Shown: in pieces, positions 4,433 to 53,637 of the stretch
Layout of the letters: each line of letters opens with the position of its first letter
Position numbering within the stretch: the first letter of the stretch is position 1
Virus record (IMG/VR): IMGVR_UViG_3300013901_000015
Location: 11,879-75,878 of that record
Origin: a virus
Lineage: Duplodnaviria > Caudoviricetes
Reading direction: 5' to 3' (one strand)
Length of the DNA stretch: 64,000 nucleotides
Program-made: the position numbers and the translations under genes
Notes under the pieces: generated by a model
Database searches by the model: none
What the model was told of the DNA's origin: nothing
The model's input: only the letters and a program-made list of their open reading frames with translations

Positions 4433-4438
4433 CTTTGC

Positions 4439-5374
4439 TTACTTGAAAGGGTTATCGGTTGGCTTTGCTTCTGCTACAGGAGCTTCTTGCATATCTCCAG
4501 AAGATGGCTGTTTGATTTCGCCTGTCTCAGCATCAACCGTTATCACTTCCTTTGCCTCGGCAAACTCTGCGTCTCGCTGCTGCAAGGCGGTAGGCTTCTC
4601 ATCGGCATTGATAATCTGCTCGGCATCAACGGAGAGTTCTCCCCACTTGGTGAGAAGCTGACGGAGCACGGTCTTCTCTGCCATGTCTTGGAATCCTGCG
4701 TACCAGCCCAAGCCTCCACCTTCGCCATTGACAGACTGCTTGATGGCTACCTCCTTCAAACCTTGCCATGTAATCTTGTTGTTGAACTTGACCGTTGGCG
4801 AGAAGGTCTTGGCGAACTTGCAAACATCGTCTAGGCTCATATACATTATCTTCTCGAAGCCCGATGTTTCCTTGAAGTAGGCGAAGTAGCCAACTGGTAC
4901 ATCTGATGTCTTGGTTCCGCTCACATCGAGTGCGCCCGTAATCTTGTCGAAGCCCTTGAATTCGCCTTCGTAGATGGTACCCTTGTTGATGTTGGTGTAT
5001 TTGTTGGTGCGAAGGGCGAGGTTAACGTAACCTCTTGTACCGATTACGAGGGTTGGGGTCGGAACGAGCTGGCCTGTTACCTTGTCTTTGTTCTTGAAGA
5101 CGATGATGTAAGCCTGTCCTAGCTGCTTATTGATAGGCAAGCGCAAACCTGCTGCCTTGACAGCCTCGCTCATGAGGGCGTTGGGGTCGCATAGCATAAA
5201 CTGAGGGTCGGAGGTGAAGAGTTCCATCAAGCTTGTGGTGAATGCTCCTTTGTTCTCCTTCATCGTATTCTCCAAGAGGGTCTGGTAATAGCTATTGTTC
5301 ATCACCGCTTGGAAGTTCTTTACTGCAAGAGCCTTCTGGGAAGGCTGCTTTACTGATACTGCTGTTTCTGCCAT
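4439..5374 (-). CDS. recT: RecT-family single-strand annealing protein
   Basis: AAGLRLPINKQLGQAYII, LVIGTRGYVNLALRT, GYFAYF and MAEKTVLRQLL motifs; acidic C-terminal tail. Confidence 0.88.
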   Translation of the reverse strand: MAETAVSVKQPSQKALAVKNFQAVMNNSYYQTLLENTMKENKGAFTTSLMELFTSDPQFMLCDPNALMSEAVKAAGLRLPINKQLGQAYIIVFKNKDKVTGQLVPTPTLVIGTRGYVNLALRTNKYTNINKGTIYEGEFKGFDKITGALDVSGTKTSDVPVGYFAYFKETSGFEKIMYMSLDDVCKFAKTFSPTVKFNNKITWQGLKEVAIKQSVNGEGGGLGWYAGFQDMAEKTVLRQLLTKWGELSVDAEQIINADEKPTALQQRDAEFAEAKEVITVDAETGEIKQPSSGDMQEAPVAEAKPTDNPFK

Positions 5375-5375
5375 A

Positions 5376-5585
5376 TTACTTACTTAAAAATTTTATTAAT
5401 TCTTCTTTTGTCTTGAAACATTCGCTTTCCTTCTTTGTCGGGAAGACAGCGAACTTGTATTGTATGCTAGATGGTGACTCGCCCATCTGTTGGAAGAATA
5501 CTCCCACGATGTTGGCACGGTGGATTTTATATCCATCCAAAAGATAGACGGCATCACCTATGTTATATTTGGTCTTAACCTCCAT
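5376..5585 (-). CDS. small hypothetical protein
   Basis: MEVKTKYNIGDAVYLL...CFKTKEELIK; abuts both neighbours. Confidence 0.6.
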   Translation of the reverse strand: MEVKTKYNIGDAVYLLDGYKIHRANIVGVFFQQMGESPSSIQYKFAVFPTKKESECFKTKEELIKFLSK

Positions 5586-5588
5586 AGC

Positions 5589-41900: not shown

Positions 41901-44900
41901 TCCTAACACCAAGGATGTGAAGTATCTGCTCTGGTTGAGCAAGAACTTGCAGAAGAATCCTAACGATCCTTACTGGAAGATGAGAGCCGAGGCGGTGAAA
42001 TACCGTCTCGACCATGAGGATGTGCCTGACGTTATCGCCAAGGATGGTATGTTTCAGAGTAATGATGGCAAGGCTCGGGACTTGGGCGACTTGCCTAAGG
42101 CTGAGTACCAAGAGGCAACTGACGGAAAGATTCATTTCCGCACTACCCCATCGGCTGGCACGGCTCTTGATAGATACCATCGTTCGCTTGATGAGCACGG
42201 CTATATGTTCACTGAGAGTTATATGGACAATATGCTTTCGCTTAAGAACTTGATGACGGCGATTGCGCCTGGCAAGAAGATTGAGGATATTGCCTCTTCG
42301 GAGAATCCTTATATCTTGCAGAACACGATGCAGGGAGCGATGAGCGATGCGGCAAGAATGTTTGAGCGCAACGTGATGAAGCCTCTCGACAAGGCGATGG
42401 CAGGGGTGCTTGATGCCTTCGAGGGCAAGAATGACGATGAGAAGATTCGTAACTTCAACCTCTACATGATTACCAAGCATGGTTTGGAGCGCAACCGTAT
42501 CTTGTATGTGCGTGATGCCTTGAAGGACATGCGCATGGACGAGAAAAAGAAGAAGCTTGCCGATACCATTGAGAATGATTGGGGCAACGAGAAGGCGACA
42601 CTTGACGAGAAGTTGGAGCGTGGCGACATCGACTTGAAGGAGTATTACAAGCAGATGGATGACTTCATCCGTACTTACGTGGATGAAACGAATAAGTTTG
42701 ATGCCGGCGAACACGACTATTCGGGCATTCACGCCATTCAGAAGGTGGAGAAAAGTTCCGACCCTTACGATGATGCGGAGGCTATACAGAGCGTGATGGA
42801 CTCTGAGGGCAGAATGGAGGACATCAAGAAGGGCGCAGTGAAGGACTATTGGGATAAGGTGAAGACTGCAACCCAGTATTCCATCGACTGTGACTATAGG
42901 AACGGACTGATAAGCAGGGAGCTGTATGGTCATGTTTCGGAGATGTTCAACTGGTATGTGCCTCTGAGAAAGTATGACGAGGCTACGGCGGAAGATACAT
43001 ACGGATATATCACCGAGAAGGGCGACCCTAAATCTTACATCGGCAAGACGATCATGAGGGCAAGGGGTCACAAGTATCTGAGTGAAACGAACATCTTGGC
43101 TCAGATTGGAGCGATGGGCAACCGTGCCATCAAGAACGGCGGACAGAATGCCATCAAACAGGCGTTCGCTAGATTCATCAGAAACAACTCGAACAATAAT
43201 CTTGTGACGGAAACTAGCGTTTGGTATGTAAGCGACCCTATCACTCAGACCACCGTGGAGCGTTACCCAGATATTCCTGACGATGCGACTGCTGACGAAA
43301 TCAGCCAGATTGTTAGCGACTTCAATATGGAAATGAAGGACTTGGCATCGAAGGGATTGGCTACGAAGGTGTATCGCAGAGGAAGAATCGGGTATAAGTT
43401 CCAGAGAGCGGAGAACAAATCTCAGCATATCGTTGATGTGATGATTGCAGGAAAGAAGCACTCCTTCATCGTGAACGGAAACCCTAGGGCTGCACAGGCT
43501 CTGAATGGATTGCTGGAGCATAAGAATGAGACTGGCATCGGTAAGATTGCTGGCAAGATTTCTAGATTTATGGCTCAGACCTGTACGTCTTACAACCCAG
43601 AGTTTGTGATGAGAAACATGATTCGTGACTTCGAGTTTGCTTCTTCTAACCTCTTGGCTAAGGAAGGTGCAAGATATACTGGTATCTTTGAGAAGTACTA
43701 TGCGAAGGTTGGTATCATAGAGGGTATCAGAAATTCTAAGCTGAGCGACTTCAAAGACACAGGCGGTTTCGGCTTGTTTGTCAAGTATCGTAACGGAACG
43801 CTTGACACTTCCGACAAGATTCAGAGATATTTCAAGGAGTTCATGGAGAACGGCGGCGAAACAGGTTGGGTACAGATTAAGAGCATGAAGGAATGGACGG
43901 AAGAGTATAAGCGTGACATCAAGGCAGAGCGCAACAAAGCTGTCAAGGTAGGAAAAGGATTCTACAATGCCATCTTTAAGAACTTGGAAAATGTGAACGA
44001 GATTGCCGAGAACATGGCTCGTTTCGCTACCTATTGTGCCAGCAGAGACAGCAATCGTTCGGTAGTACGTAGTGCTTACGATGCGAAAGAGGTGTCAACC
44101 AACTTCAACCGACATGGTTCTGGTAGTGAAATCAAGAGCTTCAAGAATGGTGAGATGGGATGGTTCGAAGAAAAACGCAAGCAAACCTATCGCTACACCT
44201 CTGCTTGGTTCAGAAATACCTCTATGTTCTTCAACGCAGGTATTCAGAGTACCAACTTGCTTGTAAAGAACTTGAAGAACAATACAGCTGGCACCTTGGG
44301 ATATATTGCAAGCGGTCCTATGATTAGCGGTATGGCTATCGCTCTGCTCAACAACTTCCTTATCGCCAACGAGGACGAGAAAGACCGCAAGGGAGTGAAA
44401 GACCCATACGGCGAGTTGCCAGATTACATCAGAAGAAACAACTTATGTGTATATGTGGGCGGCGGCGAGTTTGTTACCATTCCGCTTGCCATCGAGGAAA
44501 GAGCCTTCTATGGACTTGGCGACTTGGTGGCAGGACTTACATTCTCGCCTAACATTAGCGGACAGAAGAACCCTTTCTTGGATGCAGTGGGCTGCATGTC
44601 GCAATTAGTTCCTGTGGCTGATTACCTTGGCAATGCTTCATTTGGTAAGCATCCTGTTCAAGAGACGGTGAAGGCTGTGATGCCTTCGGCTACCTCGCCA
44701 TTTATCGAATGGGCTTACAACAGCGACTGGAAAGGTGCTCCTATCGAACGAGACAACAAGTTTGACGAGAATCAGCCAGCTTGGATGCTCGCTTACAAGG
44801 GTACTCCTGACGTGTTGTTGGACTTAAACAAGAAGGTTAATGCGTGGACTAACGGTGTAGCCCCAGGTAATGAGGATATGCTTGGAAACAGCTTCTTGGA

Positions 44901-45378
44901 TGCGGTTACTAATCCTTCGGGATTGCAGCACTTCTATAGTAGTTATCTCGGTGGTGCGGCTACCTTTGCGGAGCGCACGCTTGGGCTTATCAAGCATGGC
45001 AAAGATACCGAGACCAAGGATGTTCCTTTCGTCCGTTCTCTCTTCTATACGCCGAGCGAGCAGACTAGCTTGCAGAGGACGAAGAGCAAGTGGTATAACT
45101 ACAAGGACGAAATGGAGGTTACCATGGCGAACGTGGATAGACTGAAAGCGAAGAACGTTCCGATTGACAAGAGACTATCGAACATCGGGGAGTATTACCA
45201 CTTCCAGAACTCGAAGGATGCTGTGAAGGTAAGAGTGATTGAGCTTGCCGAAAAACAGATGGAGCAATGGAAGAAGCTGAGAGACAAATCCTCTGATACC
45301 GAGAGCATCAAGTTTGCTAATGAGAATATTGACAGGATCATGATGGATGCGGTGGAACAGCTGGATAAGCTGAACTAA
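26998..45378 (+). CDS. giant polyvalent virion-ejected protein (DarB/DdrB-like)
   Basis: 6126 aa: DdrB-like ParB (YDGNGRT, 31294), zincin HEYTH (33064), HELIH (33844), HEMIH (40933) and HEVVGH (41623), N6-MTase LEPSAGNG (near 35510) and NPPF (35689), SF2/Strawberry-notch GDQTGIGKGR (36811), DESH (37312) and QMRGRIDRTGQ (38485), LPD38-like C terminus. Confidence 0.88.
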   Translation: MGYDRIDSMYDALSKDGAQIGTRQQFKKLMLAPGKQGYKNRLGFYNAMKQDGAQIGNSYEDFARAMGLHAVKPQQARAQKPVSQPSKPMTTAERARQIGQEYMQGKAGKSKQASAGNTSSTDYMKNWQLMHKRNDQMTPVEQMQANTMRSRMQQAQKQASQQEQRRANPISQSRITPTAQNFNETMQQLSSSQAKRARAVQQREDDARNLAQYEVEGNQFAHNDGKFGTIAPEIDSLVAPSMKEADDLSWTQYQQDLKNAGNDAYLRNKAWKDLQDNRIKNRQNVLANNLSAKLQEIYSQKGLQEHIVQSADKLNMGVEEYVDKYVTPQMMQRAQNILGVKNIEEILPQSATEYVVRRLSDSILGTLSAGQDKSREQIAREQEAMAISDGLEEMPTVKGYKANEGYKSGAGARFASTAANMAMDSPILGMTGGAANMSVDLGKQVLMGGLAKAGLVKMGAKLTAQQLAFKAANMTMAQKIASGLVEGSAKGALNLGGYSSITSALGQASTGNDTSLSALGKAALEGFEHGATTGAMFGVSGAIMAPWVSKFGINGLETSTGEKWLHGAQKLGATGVGLGVEAGTMMVADNITGDKDISVGTWLEDLVMVGAFKAGEPKNYAHIGSALYGLVHNTNNTFRVGKDQNGKWRTVDIHMTKDEQNELMNSVSGKNLVETFQKVDKSSLNSKTPLDKSITKQAYQDFMNDPNVSQSTKEKVNAAMGLFNTTSAKSYRSVNDVQNKQILEYSKNGTLLTRTSYKNADERRAILYKQKLYRDNEEMRSLAGYSKLKDLQPTDENGEVTRLAFAFLTDKGYNPNETVTEANNARLIAGLRDKNSDLYKEWEKYVDRFGSLGMLISDTRTWKNGLLEVFIGDREISLDTIMRKDPMKRTDEENKIFYQVKDALESELFPNGKPHADQSETQGQSVAEDNNLGTDQPNGEAVKQELNGLRQAETEMDVLMRDNDVFSQNFKKLQSQGLTNPQIYDWMVQNGLTQEQLEPFAHYINANARVQGMQEATKQKIEEVVSGVVQDWSYHGELNGQKMNGEQVVYVQDSEGRTLIVGSGDVAFDSTTGRAKEDVGDLLICFDPNTKEMVYLKKDDVTFMQTQNPDDFGNEYRQRLQMINSQPYNEAAQEQAMQDAGKSENQNQSESIGINQNQNSESNGSEKAPQVDTTSPEASTITAKNNTTKEGLAPQEQPQQTRKFADGTDVPMTKDSKGRPTPDYGAMKPEQAAEILSQDFGENAEKVVDGQIKKAEKALKDAEKMKVDYTAEPNDILEQEQVKAQTVEAAKKQLEQAQNIKKAMTAKAVAETVGKPTDEKVEGANEASSEVAKKFQNAPRLQGNHVSKRLPNGDKISGHYEIVPAESLTPSHDVMNDYKKSEGFPVDAEGRTINDRDYEHDKAAQQTTDQMAQKYSGQAISQVPTVSDEGIVYDGNGRTMAGQKAAKNGTDAEYIEDLMDNAQNYGFTKEQIEQSGIEHPRLVMVTDERLPYDTATFSMFNRNEKKTQSNTEQAVAKAKTLTSDEVGAIVADIEGNGSLDAFFNNSKAINDLVKTLVSKGVIGQNEVAGFMDGPDRLSAQGKEYVKNLLLGSVFKPETIRMLGVDSKIKNAAINGIRAIMDNLKLGDYSLRDEIDQAIQLLYEAGRNKMSVDDLLKQSSAFEENARDRFPMIAQAMAQALEDKPTTFRELMSEYNNIAKNYNTNEGTLGFYDKLTPEQVVEEFLNASKAIKNNNIKLYGKESETERSNDAAGNEEPSNEAGGAAGTEGNGNAETEPEIKVKKALKRIATEITKQTGIEVVTDEQKAKKALDETENIKVQRASAGSTVSGMEKMPKGLQMNPSVLTDQILNYHGDHIAKLLGEVPEDSTVKYFSAHNGVWYFYRVDHDRNIILDGAISANKDNYREYEQKIKEYYGIDGGAEAIYNYVQEAGFDTGANRNLHDYFLEGGNTRHSAMGERPNESQGEARVEDNRTSGRTLRQGSSEEQSGAIKEFRSANGEVYGFTVDGKIYLDTKKMKPETPLHEYTHLWTEALRNGNPTEWENVKSLFDEVEGLKEEVQKLYPELKGDNLYEEMITTFSGREGAKKLEKVVRGLAKEDGKTVEERAKATGFITKVKEALQKYWKGVADMLHIHFTSAEEVADKVLADWASGFNPNKAFDVNDRDGDYTKNNVEYIVKNTKLPFGKKYGEELSQEEVKSLFYGDNDYSKKYGKLFDRVYDVARKLGIKISFKIPPETYSAYGLADLDNVYLNPILLARGEHKVFPNKKYSLYVKEDTLPHAMLHELIHSVTAYALERYERDKDSMPKELRAAAESLIDLYEATRKATLDYVNEYGRENEQEFIAELSNPNFCKLLKKTNVWTRVKDAIKQFFFPLISSEKNVLDKSWKETNSYKELSSLLDDFLEHSDKGLFEEEIGVQNGEIKGKEEAKEEPVPIMPKPVDPSNPIEKAAEDYKKEHPLSEDEILNTTAFDGLPEDQKQYCIDAALDYLNGEDTSAISEAYYRNAYEKRSSRPAETAKVAKADSETVKAGQAEVSADPMEGIKNAAEGFEQEKAERERKQKEATQKVLNVIKASNEKAKTRKQLEAEKNAADNEFEAFMKELRKKQSGQLNSGFIDQNLIEAAPKMFSLAAKCAYTRIKLGMYDAKEVVKDLRNRFKDAFDGFDKRDVETFYSEIMNQKWRDGDKRMSLNEWAEHYRKLSPEYKEKLEGDSKDAEERKMSEKKFIDRVNIRLGFGQKINGIVELRKMAEECGLKDVKDTDLQELAETAIVQRARGIASSASTNDAKKFELIKKLYENQPSLNQRDSERVMKQQYSTPAPYAFLADMYVKGGGKEVKSALEPSAGNGMLTIGLPMDVVHVNDIDAQRLANLRRQGFKNVTSQDGTQPFADKDVDVVVTNPPFGSATPKEYDGYKISSLEGQMAINALESMKDDGRAAIIIGGKTEYAKNGSLNPKDKAFLGYLYSHYNVEDVINVDGSLYAKQGTTYPTRIILINGRRKFDPENKVYPPVEKNARAESVKDYDELYKRINDDILRSKDKSVDIHGEEKRKGDNAGGRTNVSDSTKENGGRVGRMGDEGVSDRTPANPKQTELDTSTRPVEQREDANGGTTESASDGNSNPDTRGGQTSVPQSERTDGSSGRGDNSISGGSNTSATDNGTDGRERGVRLQSSDVQSVSNTPTQPKEEKKQTLTTEKVAYTPSSHSMSLGAVVPARQKEALETVLNKLGDADQYLVDNLGYNDKEDLYAHLAAEQVDAVALGLKQMEKGNGFIIGDQTGIGKGRQAAAIIRYAVKQGRIPVSFTIKPNLFSDTYRDLTDIGSPELRPFILASSKDGNIKENYDEEVKGLDGRVTKVRKQRIIYNVPSTTETQRVLKYIAENGKLPEGYDYILTTYSQIRTGLQEYKGGKWKDKKKINAADRNGQLKRDAIEKLAENSIFILDESHDAAGEGSGSAFIQKVLPKAKGVTFLSATYAKTPDAMKLYALKTDLGSKSKDEKDEKDDASWKILNAIKKGGTVFQEIMSQALTRSGQMIRRERDMTGVTIDWNPLTEDETEIQAQRDKFDNIFGIFNDILNFQRTYVDAKLGEMSDDAALIQGSVDHTPGTKDMGIGNVTFASKAYNVVQQALFSIKAEKVADYAIEAIKNGEKPVIAVNNTMEGMTDEYPMGEVMDMPDLNTTLMKGLEGILRYTEKNEYGDRDNKVLRLEELGEEAVARYNEIKEKIASATSGLSISPIDVIKHRLEQAGYRVGELTGRNTEFVYNEDGKVVRQKRTDTNKNALADRFNNGDLDVLILNRSASTGISLHASTKFKDQRQRTMIFAQMQGNINEEVQMRGRIDRTGQVRRGKYVYLVSSIPAEQRLMMMFKNKLKSLDANTTSSQKSKFNEVDVQDFTNKYGDEIVLQYMAQHPEYYNKLADPLGWGFMEYAQDGLSLTELKEKTKSTITSPAYEVMKRLTLLPVKEQEVVLKDISDTYAQKIKQLDDMGMNDLEITDMPLETKTLKREVWKEGSDPGGDNAFADNTYIETVEMNVLKKPMKADEVQSAQKKMLDGKDWETWRSDKIAEIKKAQQAKIEETKAKMAEQMEKKAAKTEENTRKALEKQNEKLQKRIDKGEELKPGEHVLTEDEIDNRISAVVDDVKRKMLDKQSEAIAGVNTKYEMFIGPLYVFDPDKTVSVPTDWYLEDASPSTYPEFGRVIGFKYDKNYNLGSSSIVIATTDSRKRVEIPLTRPKALSRIETDTERFAKECNVITMNSWDRLIPKKDRTTGRIITGNMLEALADNKNIGHLVSYTTDDGKVKQGILVPDSVSTEEITGNMPIAKAYNWFTKKEGGTELKSTDGNLRLAKNFGSMYTLYVPASRKEGGKYYLNKELLDLVHGHNFQSKGKNFWATFDAEKLHDVLHILNGMEVQVKTPKDFEESRTHFREDRGIQYSKTDAKDVKNSRIIPEDVDKSVSSQIEKTYDSAIEEAYKYVSEKDKTRLHSDVERDLREFSKMRREDIVNDIKQREYDFREWERSGATPDKGGFVGYRYARFKAAEAAAKRELDYRDARAKHLSDTYGLQEGRENNLDEVARIYRELQEEKDKGRDALFSKALDIVKRLGTEFGGINDAPAENYAGVSTTQREVALFIDTLARTSTRREATAKTLLHEMIHQATVGAINLVRRGNAEGLLTPKQIDAVNTILDIYDKAVADGRIHYQEGVKSDYGGKNPYEFAAQMADTVQRKKLDFTFGQKVMNAFKELWNKGDRSWKDAFKDAWGKLLETSDKKKMDKAISDIMEDFNETIDDISMRDIESRGGTFADKLSNDSPVSSHIAQLSEKVGDKVNMVHSADEVTNKQAKEAIEEGKHITGWYDEKTGEVHLYMPNIHDRYTAEKTIWHEVVGHKGMRELFGEDRFNRFLRDVWYDLDKPENADLKKLVMEEMKYNPFNVYNAIEEGIARLAEEGRGEAGFWRNLKNKVSDFLHEIGYRMAPNTKDVKYLLWLSKNLQKNPNDPYWKMRAEAVKYRLDHEDVPDVIAKDGMFQSNDGKARDLGDLPKAEYQEATDGKIHFRTTPSAGTALDRYHRSLDEHGYMFTESYMDNMLSLKNLMTAIAPGKKIEDIASSENPYILQNTMQGAMSDAARMFERNVMKPLDKAMAGVLDAFEGKNDDEKIRNFNLYMITKHGLERNRILYVRDALKDMRMDEKKKKLADTIENDWGNEKATLDEKLERGDIDLKEYYKQMDDFIRTYVDETNKFDAGEHDYSGIHAIQKVEKSSDPYDDAEAIQSVMDSEGRMEDIKKGAVKDYWDKVKTATQYSIDCDYRNGLISRELYGHVSEMFNWYVPLRKYDEATAEDTYGYITEKGDPKSYIGKTIMRARGHKYLSETNILAQIGAMGNRAIKNGGQNAIKQAFARFIRNNSNNNLVTETSVWYVSDPITQTTVERYPDIPDDATADEISQIVSDFNMEMKDLASKGLATKVYRRGRIGYKFQRAENKSQHIVDVMIAGKKHSFIVNGNPRAAQALNGLLEHKNETGIGKIAGKISRFMAQTCTSYNPEFVMRNMIRDFEFASSNLLAKEGARYTGIFEKYYAKVGIIEGIRNSKLSDFKDTGGFGLFVKYRNGTLDTSDKIQRYFKEFMENGGETGWVQIKSMKEWTEEYKRDIKAERNKAVKVGKGFYNAIFKNLENVNEIAENMARFATYCASRDSNRSVVRSAYDAKEVSTNFNRHGSGSEIKSFKNGEMGWFEEKRKQTYRYTSAWFRNTSMFFNAGIQSTNLLVKNLKNNTAGTLGYIASGPMISGMAIALLNNFLIANEDEKDRKGVKDPYGELPDYIRRNNLCVYVGGGEFVTIPLAIEERAFYGLGDLVAGLTFSPNISGQKNPFLDAVGCMSQLVPVADYLGNASFGKHPVQETVKAVMPSATSPFIEWAYNSDWKGAPIERDNKFDENQPAWMLAYKGTPDVLLDLNKKVNAWTNGVAPGNEDMLGNSFLDAVTNPSGLQHFYSSYLGGAATFAERTLGLIKHGKDTETKDVPFVRSLFYTPSEQTSLQRTKSKWYNYKDEMEVTMANVDRLKAKNVPIDKRLSNIGEYYHFQNSKDAVKVRVIELAEKQMEQWKKLRDKSSDTESIKFANENIDRIMMDAVEQLDKLN
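32210..32332 (+). CDS. candidate nested +1-frame small protein (40 aa)
   Basis: MEKNQKLKEAMMLLAMKNLQMKQEVQLAQKEMGMLKQNQK*; the host frame here is a disordered E/G/N/A linker. Confidence 0.45.
   Translation: MEKNQKLKEAMMLLAMKNLQMKQEVQLAQKEMGMLKQNQK
32738..33013 (+). CDS. candidate nested +1-frame protein (91 aa)
   Basis: Amphipathic helical sequence MELTAAQKLFIIMCKKQGLTQEQ...; A-rich initiation region; host frame is linker-like. Confidence 0.5.
   Translation: MELTAAQKLFIIMCKKQGLTQEQTAICMTIFSKEEIRDILQWVSDLMNRKGKPELKTTELLDELYDRALAKNKAERLRSSVLPTVRSMDSR
36086..36523 (+). CDS. candidate nested +1-frame acidic protein (145 aa)
   Basis: Native-like acidic helical sequence; A-rich initiation region (ATAAAAGAATAAACGATG); host frame is a G/S/R/D/T low-complexity linker between MTase and helicase. 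Confidence 0.55.
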   Translation: MTYYVAKTNPWIFTEKKSEKVTMQVVEQTFLILLKRMVDESDEWETKEFLTELLQILNRLNWTQAPDLWSNEKMPTEEQLRVLAMEIVTQTQEGDKLLYHNLNEPMEVADEETTLSLEEATLAQLITEQMDESVEYDYSPQMFNQ

Positions 45379-45414: not shown

Positions 45415-46068
45415 TTATCTATAATATATATAATCTTGGTTCTTCTTTTTATAGCAAAAATAGATATAATAAATAATTGTATATAATACTGCTTCTATCA
45501 TCGTCAAGAGAATAAACATCCAAGCCTCGTTATGATTGGAAGGGAAAAATATGTAGTTAAATTTTAATTGGACACTAATCCATAACACTAAAAACGTAAC
45601 TACGTAGAATCCAACAACAATAGATACGACAAAAGTCAAAAAATGCTCATCATATTTTCGGTAAATATAATCAAGCAAATTCAATTCTTTGGTATAATAC
45701 GTTCGTGCAACTATAAAAGGAGAGCAAACGACTGGGTAGAACAAAGAGATGGTTATCATCTCGCTTAAATAGTCCTCTCCAAAAAAATAATAATCCAAAA
45801 GAGCCATCATTGAGCAGCAAACAATATTCGATAATGCCCAATACAAATATCTATATTTTATTCGATGGTAACCATGTTTTTCGCTTCCTAGACCTTTAGA
45901 AAGCATAAAAGGAATTAGTATAGCTATGATAGGGAAAGCTTGTTGATAAATTAAATCTCTCCCATTTTTGAAAAACATATACAATTCTGGCACTAGCATT
46001 AAAGCCCATACCATATATCTTATATACCTATTTAATAAAAATCTCTTGATACCAGATTTCTGTTCCAT
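45415..46068 (-). CDS. polytopic membrane protein (moron)
   Basis: About six hydrophobic helices; AT-rich DNA. Confidence 0.7.
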   Translation of the reverse strand: MEQKSGIKRFLLNRYIRYMVWALMLVPELYMFFKNGRDLIYQQAFPIIAILIPFMLSKGLGSEKHGYHRIKYRYLYWALSNIVCCSMMALLDYYFFGEDYLSEMITISLFYPVVCSPFIVARTYYTKELNLLDYIYRKYDEHFLTFVVSIVVGFYVVTFLVLWISVQLKFNYIFFPSNHNEAWMFILLTMIEAVLYTIIYYIYFCYKKKNQDYIYYR

Positions 46069-46071
46069 ACA

Positions 46072-46317
46072 TTATTTATTATTATGCTGCATCCTATACT
46101 TTTTACTATAGCAAATGTGGCAAGGAGTTCGAAAGGAGCTGTCGGCTTCCTTTTTACTAATCTCTACAATAGCCCCTCCGCAATTTCTTAAACCTTTACA
46201 ATACTCTGTTTTATGGTATCTTCTTGAATAAGAACCAGTACATATATAAACAGTATCTGTACAAGATGCCAACAAACAGAGCATTATTGCAATCAATATT
46301 TTCTTCATACTAAGCAA
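46072..46317 (-). CDS. small lipoprotein with His/Cys metal-binding motif
   Basis: Lipobox LASC; VYICTG...YHKTEYCKGLRNC...PCHIC. Confidence 0.7.
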   Translation of the reverse strand: MLSMKKILIAIMLCLLASCTDTVYICTGSYSRRYHKTEYCKGLRNCGGAIVEISKKEADSSFRTPCHICYSKKYRMQHNNK

Positions 46318-46618
46318 AAATATGTTTGATTATATGAAATAAAATATCATATATCGCACAAGAACCTAATAGCGAAATTAATGTTTTATACTCGTTCTTC
46401 TCACTTATGCAGCGATTAATAAGTAAGGCTACTGGTATGATGATTATCATATCAAGCAAAACTATTCCTGCTTCTGAGATTAATTTTACAATAGGCGTTG
46501 GGTGGTACAAATCATCAGCCACACCTTCATCCCAACCAAATACAGCTTTATAATCGCTGACTAATCTTAAGATAAAGCATCCTAGAAAGACATAAATTGA
46601 TAATAGTAATTTCTTCAT
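46310..46618 (-). CDS. small membrane protein (moron)
   Basis: Three hydrophobic segments. Confidence 0.6.
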   Translation of the reverse strand: MKKLLLSIYVFLGCFILRLVSDYKAVFGWDEGVADDLYHPTPIVKLISEAGIVLLDMIIIIPVALLINRCISEKNEYKTLISLLGSCAIYDILFHIIKHIFA

Positions 46619-46629
46619 ATTTATAATTT

Positions 46630-47076
46630 TTATTTTAAATCACGACATGTTATTGTAATATTTCCAAAAGGCATGCTATTACAATCTACATAAGTATAAT
46701 TAAATTTAATTCCAAGTTTTGCTAAGTATGAGACATATTGAGAATATGTTACAGAATTGTCCCAAGTTCTTATTTCCCTCTTCCAACCAGTAATGACATT
46801 TTTCTTAATTTCAGACAATATATAATTTCTCTGAGAATCAGTAAAATCATTATATCTGTCCGCCATTTTGTAATGATAAGAGAGCGTCCACCCTGTAAAT
46901 GTTACATACATAAGAGTTGTAGTATCATCCACACGAATCGGTGTTTGTTGATTCATTTCCCTACACATACTCATAAAGTAATTTTTTAAAGTATTCTTTT
47001 CTTTTGGTGAAATATACTGCGCATAGTTATTTATTGCCACTATACAGAAAAGTAAAAGTGTTATAATTTTCTTCAT
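46630..47076 (-). CDS. exported protein (moron)
   Basis: Signal peptide MKKIITLLLFCIVAINNYA; a -7 box (TACTTTTG, minus strand) at 47108-47115 supports this start. Confidence 0.65.
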   Translation of the reverse strand: MKKIITLLLFCIVAINNYAQYISPKEKNTLKNYFMSMCREMNQQTPIRVDDTTTLMYVTFTGWTLSYHYKMADRYNDFTDSQRNYILSEIKKNVITGWKREIRTWDNSVTYSQYVSYLAKLGIKFNYTYVDCNSMPFGNITITCRDLK

Positions 47077-47334
47077 ATTGATAAATGTTATAAGCGTTAT
47101 TTTCTGGCAAAAGTAGTAAAAATATCGGTAAGTTGTATCGGTCATGCCGGGGTTTCTTTAAAATTTAGAATAATACTAAATAAGTGAGCAGTTTCTTGCT
47201 CATCGTAAATCATTGATTTTCAATAGATATTTGCTTACAAATTTATTTTTGAGCATAGTTAGGTCACGCCGAGGATTTGGAGTACCTTTGCAACAAGTTC
47301 AATAGTGGACGAAACGATTAATCTATCATTTTTT

Positions 47335-48327
47335 ATGGAAAGCAAAACTTATGTTTTCGGAAATGAAGGTACTAGCGGCAACAATGGTATGCTAGGACTT
47401 CTTGCGCCACTGCTCCAGAAGCAGGGCGTTGACCCAAACGTGCTTCTCGCCATGAACAGCAAAGGCAATGGTGGCTGGGGAGATTGCGGTGGTATGTTTA
47501 TCTGGGTTATCTTCCTGTTCTTCTTGATGGGATGGGGTAACAACGGTTGGGGTGGCAATGGCTTCGGCGGTGGTCGTGGTGCAGGTCTCGCCAACGAAAT
47601 CAACAATGACTATGGTCGCTCTCTCTTGATGGATGCCATTGGTGGAAATCGCAATGCCATCAGCAACTTGGCTACTCAGCTGAATTGCACCGAAGGACAG
47701 ATTCAGAACGCCATTAGCAACCTTACCTCTCAGGTTCAGAACGTGGGCAATCAGGTGGGTATGAGCGGTATGCAGACTATCAACGCTTTGCAGCAAGGCA
47801 ATATGCAGATTGCTTCTCAGCTCGCAGACTGCTGCTGCAAGGTGAACAACAACATCACGGCAATGGATGGTAACATCAAGTTGGCGATGTGTCAGCAGAC
47901 TGGCACCTTGAACAACGCCATCAACAACGTGGCTGTAGGTCAGGAGCGTGGTTTCTCTAGCGTGGCTTACGAGACTCAGAGACAGACTTGCGACATTCAG
48001 AACGCCATCAAGGACAGCACTCAGACCATCGTGGACGGTCAGAGACAGGCAGAACTCAGAGAGATGCAAGACAAGCTCGACCACTTGCGTGAGGAGAACA
48101 GCACATTCAAGTCTAGTGCGATGACCTCTCAGATTGTGGGTCAGGCTCTTGCTCCTGTTAACCAAGTGCTAGCAGGTTTGCAGAGCGAGGTGGCAGGTAT
48201 CAAGTGCAAGTTGCCAGAGACCGTAACAACTCCTTACAGCCCTTTCACGGCGGTGCCTAATTGTATCGCTGCACAGTATGGGCTTTACGGTTTGAACGGT
48301 TTGAACAACGCTGGTTTCTGGGGTTAA
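47335..48327 (+). CDS. membrane-anchored Gly/Asn/Gln-rich coiled-coil protein with CCC motif
   Basis: Start MESKTY after a TACCTTTG -7 box (47283-47290); TM helix GMFIWVIFLFFLMGW, GWG/GNG repeats, QLADCCC. Confidence 0.75.
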   Translation: MESKTYVFGNEGTSGNNGMLGLLAPLLQKQGVDPNVLLAMNSKGNGGWGDCGGMFIWVIFLFFLMGWGNNGWGGNGFGGGRGAGLANEINNDYGRSLLMDAIGGNRNAISNLATQLNCTEGQIQNAISNLTSQVQNVGNQVGMSGMQTINALQQGNMQIASQLADCCCKVNNNITAMDGNIKLAMCQQTGTLNNAINNVAVGQERGFSSVAYETQRQTCDIQNAIKDSTQTIVDGQRQAELREMQDKLDHLREENSTFKSSAMTSQIVGQALAPVNQVLAGLQSEVAGIKCKLPETVTTPYSPFTAVPNCIAAQYGLYGLNGLNNAGFWG

Positions 48328-48346
48328 ACTAAGAAAGGAGGCTACT

Positions 48347-48691
48347 ATGGTATGGATGAATCCATTTGCATGGGTGAACCGTAGAGGCTCGGCGGCTATC
48401 GCTTCACAGGGCGTGACGGTGAACACGGACAACGTTGTCTTCTCGTTCCGCAACCACGCCTTCGTGAATGCGAACTACAGGGGAACGATTTTCGTGAACT
48501 TGATGCAGTCGATTCCGACTGGCACGACTACAACGCTGCCAATCCTTTTCGAGACCAACGGCGTAACTCAGGCTGTGACTAAGTACAATGGCGAGGCTCT
48601 TACGGTGGCTGATATTCCTGGTACTGGCGTGTTACAGTTCTGGTTTGAGAGAGACACTAACACCCTTCAACTGATGACGGGTATTGTTTAA
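48347..48691 (+). CDS. beta-rich hypothetical protein, operon gene 2
   Basis: 114 aa; AAGAAAGGAGG initiation region; alternating hydrophobic strands. Confidence 0.7.
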   Translation: MVWMNPFAWVNRRGSAAIASQGVTVNTDNVVFSFRNHAFVNANYRGTIFVNLMQSIPTGTTTTLPILFETNGVTQAVTKYNGEALTVADIPGTGVLQFWFERDTNTLQLMTGIV

Positions 48692-48719
48692 CAAGATTGA
48701 ATAGATAGGAGATTACATT

Positions 48720-49220
48720 ATGTTTTCTGGACTAAGACAAAATTCATTGTTCTATGTCTTGGATAAAGGCGAGAACCCGACTTTGAGAATCGGACAGGTT
48801 GTTTCGGTAAGCAATCCGCAGACCAAGTACCCATCGTTTAACAATGGCTTCACGCCTCAGCCTATGGAATCTGTGGTAGATGTGAAAGTGAAAATTGGCG
48901 ATGAGGAGGTGGACTTCAAGCAGTTGCCAGCCAACGGACAGATAGCCAACGACAAGAACCTTGTGGTGAGTGAAAGCAAGGATGCGATGAGTGCGGAGGT
49001 GGATGCGATGCTGAGGACTTCTAGGGCGATACTGGAGAGCGTAGATTACCATGAGAAGGTTGTAAAATCTTGCGAGGGAATGCTACTGCAGCTCAACCCC
49101 CAGATAGCCAAGGAGAAGGAACAGGCGGAGAAGATTTCGAAGCTGGAGGGCAAGGTTTCTGGCATGGAAGGAAAGCTTGACCGCATGATGGGCTTGCTCG
49201 AAAAGGCAGTCAACAAGTAA
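48720..49220 (+). CDS. hypothetical protein with C-terminal coiled coil, operon gene 3
   Basis: 166 aa; beta-type N terminus and heptad C terminus. Confidence 0.7.
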   Translation: MFSGLRQNSLFYVLDKGENPTLRIGQVVSVSNPQTKYPSFNNGFTPQPMESVVDVKVKIGDEEVDFKQLPANGQIANDKNLVVSESKDAMSAEVDAMLRTSRAILESVDYHEKVVKSCEGMLLQLNPQIAKEKEQAEKISKLEGKVSGMEGKLDRMMGLLEKAVNK

Positions 49221-49258
49221 TCTCCTACTCTATCCATTCACTAAAGAATCTTTGAATT

Positions 49259-49540
49259 ATGGTTATGATTGAGATTACGGAAGACAAGTTTGATGACTTG
49301 TACGAGAACATCGAGAGTATGCTTCGCTTCGGTGGCAAGGCTATGACTTGCCTTGACAAGATGAAACATGAGAAGGAAGACCGATATGGCGAGCGGAATC
49401 CGATGCCAGACTACCGTGGACGATGGAGACACGGCTATCGTGAGGATGAGAACTACGAGGAAAAGGAGAGGCGTGAGCGCATGGAACGTGATGCGCCCGA
49501 CTATCGTGGTGGTGGCTACCGTGGAGGTGGCGGATATTAA
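49259..49540 (+). CDS. hypothetical protein with R/E/Y-rich and RGG tail, operon gene 4
   Basis: 93 aa ending PDYRGGGYRGGGGY. Confidence 0.7.
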   Translation: MVMIEITEDKFDDLYENIESMLRFGGKAMTCLDKMKHEKEDRYGERNPMPDYRGRWRHGYREDENYEEKERRERMERDAPDYRGGGYRGGGGY

Positions 49541-49605
49541 CTAAGTAAAGGTTTGGTTCCGACATTAATGCCGGTGCCAAACTTTTCTTTTAAAGGATTA
49601 CTATT

Positions 49606-50016
49606 ATGAGAAAATACAGACAATCGCTGAATGCCTACGATTATCAGCCAGAGGAAATGAAGTCTTATCTCAGACACAATGGTTGGCACTTCAATAAGAA
49701 GATGTGCGAATGGGCAGTGAAGCAAATGCGGAAGAATGGGAAACCTATCAAGCCGATGAACAACGAGGAGATGGAAGAACTTCTGCACAAGTATGAGATA
49801 GAGCTAGAGAATAACGTGGGGCACGATGCTTGCTACATCGCAAACATGTGCCGAGCCGATTTCTATGCTTCTTCGATTACAGATGAAAAGGGGTTGGCTC
49901 AGTTTGTCAAGGACTATGTGGATGACGAGGATCAACAGGACGGATTCATCTTCAATCGGTTCTATGCGGACTGCTCGCTGAATGGCGTTGGCATTCCTTG
50001 GGATGAAATATTGTAA
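49606..50016 (+). CDS. acidic helical hypothetical protein, operon gene 5
   Basis: 136 aa; YLRHNGWHFNKKMCEWAV...FVKDYVDDED...GIPWDEIL. Confidence 0.7.
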   Translation: MRKYRQSLNAYDYQPEEMKSYLRHNGWHFNKKMCEWAVKQMRKNGKPIKPMNNEEMEELLHKYEIELENNVGHDACYIANMCRADFYASSITDEKGLAQFVKDYVDDEDQQDGFIFNRFYADCSLNGVGIPWDEIL

Positions 50017-50021
50017 GAGAT

Positions 50022-50411
50022 ATGACTGAGCAGGAGATATATCTGGAGAGGTATGACTGGACAGTGCATGTACTATATGATGTGCGGTCTAGAGATGCTA
50101 TGTATGTTAGAAGGTGTCTTCGAGATTTGGGATGCAGGGGCGTTCCTCTCGAAGATGCCTCTAATCTCGTGCTCAGAGGTGAGGCTAACAAGGGGCTCAC
50201 CTACTCGAATGTTTCTTTGAGGAAAACGGTGGTGGCTATCGGATGGACTACTTCATCTGGGGAGTATGCCAACAGCCTCAGTCATGAAATGCTGCATGTG
50301 GTTCAGCACATATCGGAACTATACATTATTAATATGTATGGGGAAGAAGCTTGTTATTTGTTGGGGGGATTGATTCAGACAAGCAGTAAGCACTATTTAG
50401 ATTCTATATAA
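50022..50411 (+). CDS. small zincin-like metallopeptidase, operon gene 6
   Basis: HEMLH at 50283-50297 with downstream GEEACY (possible third ligand). Confidence 0.65.
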   Translation: MTEQEIYLERYDWTVHVLYDVRSRDAMYVRRCLRDLGCRGVPLEDASNLVLRGEANKGLTYSNVSLRKTVVAIGWTTSSGEYANSLSHEMLHVVQHISELYIINMYGEEACYLLGGLIQTSSKHYLDSI

Positions 50412-50492
50412 ACTAAGCGAAAATTAGTATTCAGAGGGTACAAGTTACAGATATTTTTGTTACTTTTGTGGGAAAATAACGCTTTAACAAAT

Positions 50493-52010
50493 ATGACAGA
50501 ACAAGGAACGAACATCATTACATGGATTAGCTGCATCATCATTTGTGGTGCATTTTTGGTATTCTTCTATATCACGAAGACTGCCAAAGAAGAGTTTTTA
50601 CAAAAACACAAACGAACTATAGATGCTTTCCCTTCTATAGTCTCCACTCTTGGTGTGTTTGGAACATTCCTAGGCATTACCATAGGATTGGCAGGATTCG
50701 ATGTGAGTGATTTAACAAGAAACATACCTATATTGTTGGGTGGATTGAAGACGGCTTTCTTCACTTCACTTTGTGGTATGGGTGGTTCCTTGATTCTTCG
50801 CCATTGCTGCACAGACATTAAGTTTGACAAAGAAGATGGAGGTATCTCTTCTACTGATGCTGCAATCAAGGAACTTGGCAAGGGGGTTAGAGAAATGAGT
50901 ACTACATTGGTTTCAACTTTGGTTCAAAACAGAAATGAAATGAGCCAGATGGGTATGGCACAAGCTTCATTCTTTAACCAAATTCTTGAAATCAACAAAT
51001 CTATTGCTGGCTGTGTAACCAACATTGACACAAAATTAGCTCGTATCTCTTTGCTAGAAGGAGAACAATCCACATCGCTAAATACTATATCTTTACTTGC
51101 CTCTAACTATGAAGCGAGTAATAAACGTATAGAGGAATCACTCGGAGAAATCGTTGACGCACAGTCTTCCAATGTTTCAACTTTTGATGAAATGAATGAG
51201 GAGCTAAAGAAATTCAGCCAGATTTTGCGTTCGGAAGTAGATGACATCGAAGACAAGATGGAAGCAACCAACAAGCTACTTACCGATAAGTTTGATGAGT
51301 TTAGCGAATTGCTTAAGAAGAGTAATACCGAAGCCTTGGTTGAAGTTATGAAAAAGGTTACTGAGGAGTTCCAAAAACAGATGAACGCCCTTATCAGTAG
51401 ATTGGTACAGGAGAACTTCGCTAAGTTGAACGAGAGCGTTGAGAAACTAAACACATGGCAGGAAGAAAATAAGGCTATGATTGAAAGCCTTACCAAGCAA
51501 TATCATCAGATGGAAGAGGATTTCGAGGATTCTTCCAACACGATGCAAGAGGTTTCAGAAAATGCTCAGAAGCTAGTAGGTAACGGTGGAAGACTTGCGC
51601 AACTCGTTACAGCATTAGAAGAAGCCATGGTTAATGACAAGAAGTTTATTGAAATATCAAAGAACCTATCTGAATCAGCTTCACTTGCCAAGGACGGAAT
51701 TGAGAAACAAGATGCCATCACTAACAAGTTGAACGATTGGGTGCATGGTGTACAGGTGTTCAAAGATGATGTTCAACGACTTATCAACAAACTGGAGGAA
51801 TTGAATAGCATCAGAAACTATAATGAGCAATTTTGGCAGTCAACAAAGAAGAGCATGGAAGATGGCGTAGGTATCATTCAAAGTGGTAGCGAAGAATTGA
51901 ACAAACAGATTCTAAACATCGACAAGAGTTTCTACAATAGACTAAGTGCAACTTTGGCTAGTCTTGATAACCTCATTGCTTCAATGGCTGGTAAATATAT
52001 CAACAGATAA
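50493..52010 (+). CDS. zorA: ZorA (MotA-like channel with long helical tail)
   Basis: TM helices with STLGVFGTFLGITIGL and LKTAFFTS, then ~380-aa helical tail; start MTEQGT follows a TACTTTTG -7 box. Confidence 0.75.
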   Translation: MTEQGTNIITWISCIIICGAFLVFFYITKTAKEEFLQKHKRTIDAFPSIVSTLGVFGTFLGITIGLAGFDVSDLTRNIPILLGGLKTAFFTSLCGMGGSLILRHCCTDIKFDKEDGGISSTDAAIKELGKGVREMSTTLVSTLVQNRNEMSQMGMAQASFFNQILEINKSIAGCVTNIDTKLARISLLEGEQSTSLNTISLLASNYEASNKRIEESLGEIVDAQSSNVSTFDEMNEELKKFSQILRSEVDDIEDKMEATNKLLTDKFDEFSELLKKSNTEALVEVMKKVTEEFQKQMNALISRLVQENFAKLNESVEKLNTWQEENKAMIESLTKQYHQMEEDFEDSSNTMQEVSENAQKLVGNGGRLAQLVTALEEAMVNDKKFIEISKNLSESASLAKDGIEKQDAITNKLNDWVHGVQVFKDDVQRLINKLEELNSIRNYNEQFWQSTKKSMEDGVGIIQSGSEELNKQILNIDKSFYNRLSATLASLDNLIASMAGKYINR

Positions 52011-52012
52011 AT

Positions 52013-52714
52013 ATGGCAAAAAATAATATTTGGATGTCTGTATCAGATCTTATGACAGGATTAATGGTAATATTTCTTTTCGTTGCCATTGCTTATATAA
52101 GTAAGGTACAGGAACATTCGGTTACACTGAAAGATTATGTGGAGGTCAAGGAAAACCTCCATGACAAATTGGTTAGCAAGTTTAAGGGCGACACTGCGAA
52201 ATGGCAAATGTCAATCGGCAGTGATTTGTCTATGAAATTCAAGAATGCCTCAGTGTTGTTTCAGCAAGGTTCAGACCAGCTTTCACCTGAATTTCAAAAG
52301 GTGTTGGCAGACTTCTTGCCTAGATACTTTGATATTTTACTGAATGATAGCTTGCGAAATCATATAACAGAGATTCGTATCGAGGGGCATACGGACGATT
52401 GGGGCTATCCTCAACTAGACAAGGATCCTTACATCGCCAATGTGATTCTGTCTCAGAAGAGAGCATTGAATGTACTAAGATTCTTTCGCTCTTTGCCAGA
52501 GTTCAAAAAGTACACACCAAAGGAAAAAGCTTTGCTTGAATATTGGTTTACTGCCAACGGCTTATCGTATGGAAAAGCCTTGGACTCACAAGGTGAATAT
52601 GTTCATGATAGTCATAAGCGGATTGATTTGGCTAAGTCTAGACGAGTAGAATTTAGAATTATTACTGATAGCGAAAAGCTGTTGGAAAACTTTGTTGGCA
52701 AAAATAAACAATAG
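52013..52714 (+). CDS. zorB: ZorB (MotB-like, OmpA domain)
   Basis: WMSVSDLMTGLMVIFL TM with conserved Asp; IEGHTD, LSQKRA and RRVEFRI OmpA-family motifs. Confidence 0.8.
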   Translation: MAKNNIWMSVSDLMTGLMVIFLFVAIAYISKVQEHSVTLKDYVEVKENLHDKLVSKFKGDTAKWQMSIGSDLSMKFKNASVLFQQGSDQLSPEFQKVLADFLPRYFDILLNDSLRNHITEIRIEGHTDDWGYPQLDKDPYIANVILSQKRALNVLRFFRSLPEFKKYTPKEKALLEYWFTANGLSYGKALDSQGEYVHDSHKRIDLAKSRRVEFRIITDSEKLLENFVGKNKQ

Positions 52715-52725
52715 GAGAAATTATC

Positions 52726-53571
52726 ATGGAAGAAGATAAAGGTTTAACTAGCTTTGATGCCTTACGTGCCAAGCTTATCTCGTTAGGAATAAATATCAAT
52801 GCTCCAGTTTCAAACACAGGCTATCGAGTGGTCTCATCGAAAGATGTAACCCTTGGCGACTTAAAACATGGTCGATTAAAGATAGACGATACCGGTATAT
52901 TTAATATTGATCCTGACACTGGGGCAGAGCAGCGTGTGTTTCTGTATAAAAGAAAGTACAACATTGCTAGATACAAAATTCCACGCTATCATATCTGTAA
53001 ATGCCAAGTAATAACGGATTTCATGAACAGTGCTGGTGAGATACCCGAATACAGACAAGCCAATGATATGCCTGTTTGGGTGATAGACATTAGCGATAAT
53101 AATACAGACAAGAAGATTGACAAGTTACCTTTATGTAAATATTGTGCAGCTTTACTTGGAAATATAGACAAGAATACTACTTCTGATGAGTTCGTGGAAA
53201 TTCTTAAAAAAGCGCATCCTGCACCAACCAAGCCTCAACAAGAAGTAGAAGTTGACGTGAATGGCTATACTCGTGACTGGAGAGAGATTAGTCTAAAGTT
53301 TCGAGAGAAGCATAATTACACTTGTGAAAGATGTGGCGTTAAGGTAATGAATCCTTTCGAAAGCGAGTTTATACAGGTACATCATCGTAATGGAGACAAG
53401 ACTGACAATCATGAAAGTAATCTTGAATGTCTGTGTATTAAGTGCCATTCAGAAGTTGATGACACGCATCGTAGGAATTTCAGCACGAAAGCACAACAAG
53501 GTTTGATACAGGAGTTTCTGCTTAATTATGGGTGCGAGAGATTTAAAGGTAGAAATGGGGAGCTGTTTTAG
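52726..53571 (+). CDS. zorE: ZorE-like HNH endonuclease
   Basis: CERCG...QVHHRNGDKTDNHESNLECLCIKCHSEV; directly after zorAB. Confidence 0.7.
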   Translation: MEEDKGLTSFDALRAKLISLGININAPVSNTGYRVVSSKDVTLGDLKHGRLKIDDTGIFNIDPDTGAEQRVFLYKRKYNIARYKIPRYHICKCQVITDFMNSAGEIPEYRQANDMPVWVIDISDNNTDKKIDKLPLCKYCAALLGNIDKNTTSDEFVEILKKAHPAPTKPQQEVEVDVNGYTRDWREISLKFREKHNYTCERCGVKVMNPFESEFIQVHHRNGDKTDNHESNLECLCIKCHSEVDDTHRRNFSTKAQQGLIQEFLLNYGCERFKGRNGELF

Positions 53572-53580
53572 CTCTCCATT
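53554..53580. terminator. bidirectional terminator
   Basis: AATGGGGAGCT-GTTTT-AGCTCTCCATT at the zorE/fibre convergence. Confidence 0.65.
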
Positions 53581-53637
53581 TCTATGTGTAAAGTCAGCTA
53601 CTTAGAGGACAATCTATGCACATCGCATTTCTCTTTC

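Follow-up and report, generated by a model that had tools for sequence, protein, structure and literature searches.

A conserved six-gene cassette exchanged among gut Bacteroidota phages and its possible role in a late, membrane-tethered complex

What is encoded by six consecutive phage genes that stand directly beside a defence system, and does that neighbour say anything about their function? The question is raised by a 64,000-nucleotide (nt) stretch of DNA, here called the window, which comprises bases 11879-75878 of the 75,878-bp IMG/VR virus record IMGVR_UViG_3300013901_000015, a record rated complete. The genes, named g1 to g6, precede a Zorya type II cassette, and a sequence-only reading of this DNA had proposed that they encode a multi-component, membrane-tethered assembly acting in defence or counter-defence, given their position in an island with zorABE. 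The phage carries an integrase, RecT, SbcC-type recombination genes, a portal gene and tail-fibre genes, and close homologues of g1 are present in assemblies of Segatella copri, Ca. Segatella violae, Prevotella, Leyella and Phocaeicola, one of them within a 1.6-Mb contig; a single-protein scan of genome contigs yielded matches only in Segatella, Prevotella, Leyella and Phocaeicola genomes. On this gene content and these homologues, the source of the window is a temperate Segatella/Prevotella phage of 75.9 kb. The six genes are firmly shown to be a conserved, autonomous operon that is exchanged among unrelated gut Bacteroidota phages.

This result comes from 80 viral loci collected through g1 and 80 more collected through the phage backbone, using the last 499 amino acids (aa) of a giant 6126-aa gene; the genes in all fetched loci are simple open reading frame (ORF) calls made for this analysis. 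The order g1-g6 is colinear in every one of the 80 loci found through g1 and in 72 of the 80 found through the backbone (49 direct, 23 inverted), with a median of 645 bp separating the module from the giant gene's end in this lineage. In over 150 independent viral contigs g1-g6 are conserved, colinear and closely spaced, which sets them far apart from chance ORFs. All six genes are present in the cultured Bacteroides phage C3_41T2LP, which is of siphovirus type with a tape measure, and the complete module, with overlapping gene ends, is found in phages of 120-225 kb in which the stop codon TAG is recoded to glutamine (Gln). Crassvirales carry g5-g1-g2-g3, sometimes together with g6, and iterated profile searches of distant loci revealed a reduced g1-g3-g5 set, the minimal core, in temperate phages of about 50-65 kb. 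The recurrence in gut Bacteroidales phages that the sequence-only reading had claimed is therefore borne out in many Bacteroidota phage loci, and the synteny on which its proposal depended is seen in both sets of loci.

The g1 gene also occurs alone, at loci L085 and L086, in NC_092586.1 (vir215) and BK063680.1 (vir335), viruses labelled as infecting Methanomassiliicoccales. These g1 homologues (phrog_16490) adjoin a phrog_5302 tail protein, with a reverse transcriptase there as well in vir215, and the g2-g6 profiles detected nothing at either locus.

In addition to being mobile, the module is firmly shown to be a non-essential accessory unit. Natural deletions on the same backbone make it dispensable: one relative retains only the 3' part of g6 (L212), another a g5 remnant with g6 (L232), a third g1 only (L185), and a fourth has no module (L171). 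It is also invertible, as the 23 inverted copies among the 72 colinear backbone-found loci demonstrate. In two database proteins, P0276 and P0277, the N-terminal 176 or about 290 residues of a g1 run in frame into the C-terminal portion of a g5; both are deletion derivatives that have lost g2-g4, and a search for longer fused forms of g5 returned only these two g1-g5 fusions. Identities among close relatives are mosaic, at 80-84% for g1, 80-88% for g2, 54-84% for g5 and 38-79% for g6.

The recoded phages provide a view of when the module would be expressed. On the 120-225-kb contigs the ORFs are fragmented, and the g1 frames contain 7-20 in-frame TAG codons where relatives have Gln. Counted per gene, there are 7-20 in-frame TAG codons in intact g1 genes, 3-8 in g3 and 0-1 in g4; every gene type of the module contains in-frame TAG in at least some recoded loci, g4 having none in several. 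For genes that depend on TAG being read as Gln, translation is thought to be confined to the late phase that follows a switch of code (PMC9523058; PMC11210395); by metaproteomics, recoded peptides were detected among structural proteins but not among early ones (PMC9523058). The dense in-frame TAG in the module implies late translation, and wherever the genetic code shows timing the module is firmly placed among the genes predicted to be late. Tail-fibre and capsid-region genes of these recoded phages are also TAG-dense, and two small genes just 5' of the module are free of TAG.

In the window, all six genes are on the plus strand (Table 1) and contain the LADCCC, HEMLH and RGG-tail motifs that had been described from the sequence. 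The -7 box that had been claimed for the operon is found upstream of g1, and a TAnnTTTG box lies 20-120 nt 5' of g1 in 80 of 80 loci of the same g1 cluster, with a background of 0.053 per 100 nt; a sigma-70 promoter scan is uninformative for Bacteroidota. The hairpin claimed for the gap between g4 and g5 also folds as expected, with a U-run after it, and is a candidate internal terminator or attenuator. No signal peptide or lipobox was found in g2-g6, and no lipobox Cys at the N terminus of any of the six proteins. The G+C content (GC) of the module, 0.44-0.49, is backbone-like, with lower values in the Zorya cassette and in the morons upstream. Together these data support a separately promoted multi-gene unit led by a helical protein of the membrane-anchor type. 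In several unrelated lineages a small gene of 84-122 aa is located directly 5' of g1 and may be a regulator of the cassette. Its copy in L090 weakly matches the helix-turn-helix (HTH) family HTH_17 (0.0009) and the copy in L131 has no Pfam match; in the window this small gene is missing before g1.

Table 1. The six-gene module, its control elements and related features (positions are those of the window unless a locus or the whole record is named)
Feature	Position	Strand	Description
-7 promoter box TACCTTTG, Bacteroidota type	47283..47290	+	52 nt before the g1 ATG; sequence read
g1	47335..48327	+	330 aa; phrog_16490, E = 1e-45
g2	48347..48691	+	114 aa; beta-rich, soluble, no signal peptide; phrog_31654, E = 9e-25
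g3	48720..49220	+	166 aa; phrog_28898, E = 4e-38
g4	49259..49540	+	93 aa; conserved N-terminal helix, variable R/E/D/Y/G low-complexity tail ending RGGGYRGGGGY
Hairpin followed by U-run, g4-g5 gap; candidate internal terminator/attenuator	49543..49589 (about)	+	-19.1 kcal/mol; z = -3.56 vs shuffles
g5	49606..50016	+	136 aa; Pfam DUF7841 (PF25223), E = 1e-26; phrog_38431, E = 5e-42
g6	50022..50411	+	129 aa; minimal zincin-like protein; HEMLH and a conserved Glu about 20 residues downstream
Zorya type II cassette	~50450-53607		own TAnnTTTG boxes at 50452 and 50461; GC 0.37-0.40
Giant gene, 6126-aa polyvalent protein	26998-45378		three HExxH motifs, at aa 2023, 2283 and 4646
Four small membrane/secreted-protein genes (morons)	45415-47145	-	between the giant gene and the module; GC 0.31-0.37
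Lysis cassette of the phage	4208-5672 of the whole record	-	outside the window (locus L152)
Small gene 5' of g1 in other lineages	L090:7527-7781; L088:7521-7823; L131:7524-7844; L124:5945-6313; L001:5212-5526		candidate cassette regulator
Large TAG=Gln gut phages with the full module	L088-L101, L103, L106, L115, L117, L145

In sequence searches, and in fold searches with the models of g3 and g5, the six proteins gave no match to a family of characterised function or to a solved fold. Four of them are direct members of families without assigned function (phrog_16490 for g1, phrog_31654 for g2, phrog_28898 for g3, phrog_38431 and DUF7841 for g5). The g1 protein begins with a conserved N-terminal motif, followed by a Trp/Phe-rich hydrophobic segment of 13 residues between Gly-rich (GWG/GNG) runs, then many short N/Q-rich helices, the LADCCC motif and a Pro/aromatic/Gly C-terminal tail. 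An alignment of 48 members of the family, which comprises 909 clusters at 50% identity (E <= 1e-3), shows a near-invariant Cys within CCC and a conserved K-C-K-x-P-x-T-V before the aromatic/Gly tail. The matches of g1 to PDB sequences are coiled coils only, namely coronavirus S2 HR1 (E = 0.0015) and reovirus sigma-1 (0.72). Database labels on g1 homologues, including those in crAss-like phages, such as 'spike protein/glycoprotein' and 'outer capsid protein/viral fiber', follow from this compositional coiled-coil similarity only.

In recoded and crAss-like phages, too, a g2 homologue occupies this place in the module. Fourteen g2-type proteins searched against Pfam, and the g2 profile against PDB sequences, gave no match, a search of the whole phage record with BclA_C (PF18573) returned nothing at E <= 10, and an ESM Atlas search with g1 and g2 returned just their own viral clusters. 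When g2, g3 and g6 were searched against PDB sequences, nothing beyond coiled-coil or chance matches emerged. The AlphaFold2 (AF2) model of g3 (predicted local distance difference test, pLDDT, 79.5) comprises an N-terminal SH3/KOW-like small beta-barrel and a C-terminal helical hairpin; with VIA it is closest to EF-P domain I (Z 6.4, root-mean-square deviation, rmsd, 2.2, 60 aligned), and, apart from coiled coils, fold searches with it found only small barrels of a generic kind (EF-P domain I, Tudor, chromo). The position of g4 is kept in relatives and in recoded phages. In two crAss-like loci that read TAG as Gln (L102:7106-7732 and L140:7228-7815), a DUF7841 protein 5' of g1 ends in an R/G/Y/D-rich tail similar to that found in g4; it looks like a fusion of g5 and g4 in swapped order, and the joining of a g4-like tail to a g5-type C terminus ties these two genes together.

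The g5 protein scores 93.8 bits against Pfam DUF7841, compared with a cut-off of 25.2, and its alignment has invariant His28, Asp74, Asp85, Asp107 and Asp109. Its AF2 model is all-helical (pLDDT 88.8) and gave no clear fold match among solved structures with Foldseek or VIA; a search of BFVD with the model returned DUF7841 phage proteins only. A Ulp1/NEDD8-protease-like assignment was considered and rejected, with a best match of Z 4.0 (rmsd 3.9, 94 aligned) and no conserved Cys in g5 for the triad. By its HExxH motif and third ligand, g6 is predicted to be a zincin metallopeptidase; 10 of 12 aligned members conserve HE..H together with an (S/G)E(E/D) further downstream, and two members are without HExxH. 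It resembles ImmA/IrrE (Peptidase_M78), SprT-like and MPTase-PolyVal proteins in having HExxH and a downstream Glu within a domain of about 125 aa, but differs in that all matches of its family fall below the Pfam cut-offs. No Pfam family matched g6 itself at E <= 0.1, and of 12 members scanned singly two weakly matched Peptidase_M78 (0.0076), one matched SprT-like (0.044) and none matched MPTase-PolyVal.

The genomic surroundings of the module in other phages frequently include lysis genes. An endolysin is located within 3.5 kb of g1 in at least 9 of 17 g1 clusters (60% identity), a lower bound because the set of endolysin seeds, of which Amidase_2, GH108 and Peptidase_M15_3 were checked with Pfam and the others taken from annotation, is incomplete. 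Annotated holins or endolysins flank the module in cr1_1, cr4_1, cr52_1 and cr116_1, and a DUF7841 protein adjoins the endolysin in Parabacteroides phage PD691P6. Typical gene orders are tail fibres, holin, amidase, lipoprotein, small HTH protein, g1-g3-g5 and integrase in L131; HTH protein, g1-g6 and M15 endolysin in L090 and L088; and holin/endolysin, g5-g1-g2-g3 and virion genes in cr4_1 and cr1_1.

From this body of evidence we infer the formation of a complex, its membrane topology and its lysis-related role, and we tentatively favour an accessory, late, membrane-tethered complex of g1 with soluble partners that acts around lysis or release. In such a complex, g1 would be anchored in the cytoplasmic membrane through its short hydrophobic segment and would extend a long, Cys-containing helical domain, which the five signal-peptide-free proteins g2, g3, g4, g5 and g6 would join. 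The assembly would be produced late in infection and act at the membrane near lysis, adjusting when or how efficiently the envelope is disrupted or progeny are released, and would be a core part of neither the lysis machinery nor the virion. More doubtful is the further proposal that this is a previously undescribed phage machine, in which a self-contained complex of six proteins, passed horizontally between phages, would be built around a Cys-rich helical rod anchored in the membrane, with a DUF7841 protein and a zincin as soluble partners. It would provide crAss-like and many other gut Bacteroidota phages with a late accessory function, such as control over lysis timing or over the release of progeny, for which the characterised holin, antiholin, spanin and defence systems offer no counterpart.

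Two known kinds of lysis protein invite comparison. Spanins are either of the two-component Rz/Rz1 type or of the unimolecular T1 gp11 type. With them g1 would share a predicted N-terminal membrane anchor and a long helical domain containing Cys, and the module is dispensable and often near a holin or endolysin; it differs in having no lipobox partner among g1-g6, in its five soluble partners including a zincin, and in showing no similarity of sequence or fold. Reading g1 itself as a spanin fails because a lipoprotein partner is missing and separate spanin-like lipoproteins exist. One of these is encoded in the phage's own lysis cassette (Table 1), which contains a candidate holin of 160 aa with two transmembrane (TM) segments, a GH19/chitinase-type endolysin of 181 aa and a lipoprotein of 149 aa with a lipobox (LLYGC) and a C-terminal TM segment that resembles a unimolecular spanin; similar lipoproteins adjoin the endolysin in L131 and L124. 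Lysis control in T4 employs the class III holin T, with one TM segment and a large C-terminal domain, and the antiholins RI and RIII. Its likeness to the module is architectural only: each would combine one membrane segment and a large domain outside the membrane with small soluble partners, and a role in lysis timing is proposed for the module. Homology is absent, and the phages with the module have separate holin candidates.

Several observations weigh against a role around lysis. The lysis cassette of this phage is placed elsewhere in the genome and looks complete without the module, C3_41T2LP shows no adjacency of module and lysis genes, and proximity to lysis genes may reflect only a common cargo slot at the ends of late operons. 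Sequence searches, and fold searches with the g3 and g5 models, found no component like a known lysis protein. The hydrophobic segment of g1 is short, and its flanking K/R values (0.73 vs 0.90) do not fix its orientation; Cys counts are mixed odd and even. In this lineage the promoter is of host type, which makes expression in the lysogen or in early infection possible, and g1 by itself occurs in the viruses labelled as infecting Methanomassiliicoccales.

The promoter leads to the first of three rival explanations, in which the module is expressed from the prophage and serves defence or superinfection exclusion as a membrane-anchored sensor/effector complex, possibly controlled by g6, that shields the lysogen. 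The neighbour that had suggested defence is genuine: PADLOC identifies a type II Zorya directly downstream of g6, as the sequence-only reading claimed, with matches to ZorA2 (6e-168), ZorB2 (4e-76) and ZorE2 (5e-81). Its presence is however rare among relatives. No Zorya was found in the 80 loci collected through g1, including the closest relative, a contig 100% identical over g1-g3 whose homology to the window stops at 50383, before Zorya. It is present in 4 of the 80 backbone-found loci, and is absent overall from 156 of the 160 related loci, so that there is no conserved co-occurrence of zorA/zorB with the module. Inversion of the module in L223, L233 and L234 leaves Zorya abutting the g1 end, and the window's cassette is 78% identical to the L223 copy, which is sited on that other side. 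At L191:14417-15458, a decayed Zorya reduced to 5' zorA and 3' zorE is found beside an intact six-gene module in a window-like arrangement. Zorya is rare among relatives and may flank the module at one end or the other; it forms a cassette apart, richer in AT and equipped with -7 boxes of its own. The link is incidental, and the adjacency a coincidence of two cassettes occupying one cargo slot, which is bounded by the giant gene and the convergent tail-fibre genes.

The same slot also receives other cargo. Four small AT-rich genes separate the giant gene from the module; one relative (L004/L155) has them at 100% identity and others only sporadically, and they thus behave as morons.

For the defence explanation, this hotspot for Zorya and small membrane-protein morons is a favourable setting, as are the host-type -7 box in all 80 close relatives and the fact that the module can be lost and inverted. 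The only matches to PADLOC models are weak ones, of g1 to the coiled-coil tail of ZorA2 (3.7e-4) and of g5 to AbiEi (5e-4); neither is meaningful, and g2, g3, g4 and g6 matched nothing. The backbone-like GC of the module is unlike that of Zorya, and its carriage by Crassvirales and large recoded phages, with dense TAG that implies late expression, would put it at the wrong time for exclusion or prophage defence. We consider this explanation unlikely. Of the sequence-only reading, the membrane-led syntenic unit of gut Bacteroidales phages stands, and the role in defence or counter-defence deduced from the position of zorABE is unsupported.

A second explanation, which we rate as equally improbable, regards the module as virion-associated cargo or an ejection system working with the giant polyvalent protein: g1 would enter the host membrane at DNA entry, g5 and g6 would be free-standing domains of polyvalent type, and g6 would process the giant protein. 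The short distance to the end of the giant gene in this lineage is consistent with this, as are late translation and the Suoliviridae, in which the module adjoins virion structural and tail tubular genes. The predicted zincin g6 has a homologue annotated as a PolyVal metallopeptidase in C3_41T2LP, and g5 weakly matches LPD28 in Pfam (0.021, below cut-off). In a phmmer search, however, nothing below E = 0.01 was found between g1-g6 and the 6126-aa protein, and the 12 singly scanned g6-family members, as described above, do not match MPTase-PolyVal. Ejection proteins usually follow the tail type, while the module is found in siphovirus-type and crAss-type phages alike. An essential virion or ejection part would be expected in every member of a lineage and at a fixed morphogenesis place; the deletions on the same backbone and the 23 inversions among 72 loci argue against such a part.

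Counter-defence or host takeover, with g4-g6 neutralising a host factor and g1-g3 placing them at the membrane, draws on a turnover of g5 and g6 that is faster than that of g1 and g2 and typical of conflict genes, and on a zincin that could cleave a host target, but it is the weakest rival on timing and quite improbable, as counter-defence is usually needed early, late translation in the recoded phages fits it poorly, and the six proteins have no similarity to known anti-defence proteins.

Whichever function is assigned to it, and with a late, membrane-tethered complex acting around lysis or release as the reading tentatively favoured here, the cassette is among the most widespread multi-gene units without an assigned function in human and animal gut phages, crossing Crassvirales, Bacteroides siphoviruses, Segatella temperate phages and the 120-225-kb recoded phages. 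Two corrections to annotation follow: the 'spike' and 'outer capsid/viral fiber' labels that public crAss-like genomes carry have no basis beyond coiled-coil composition, and no functional link is to be read from the proximity of Zorya in this phage. Finally, as C3_41T2LP is a cultured carrier that grows on B. uniformis, the function of the cassette is directly testable.

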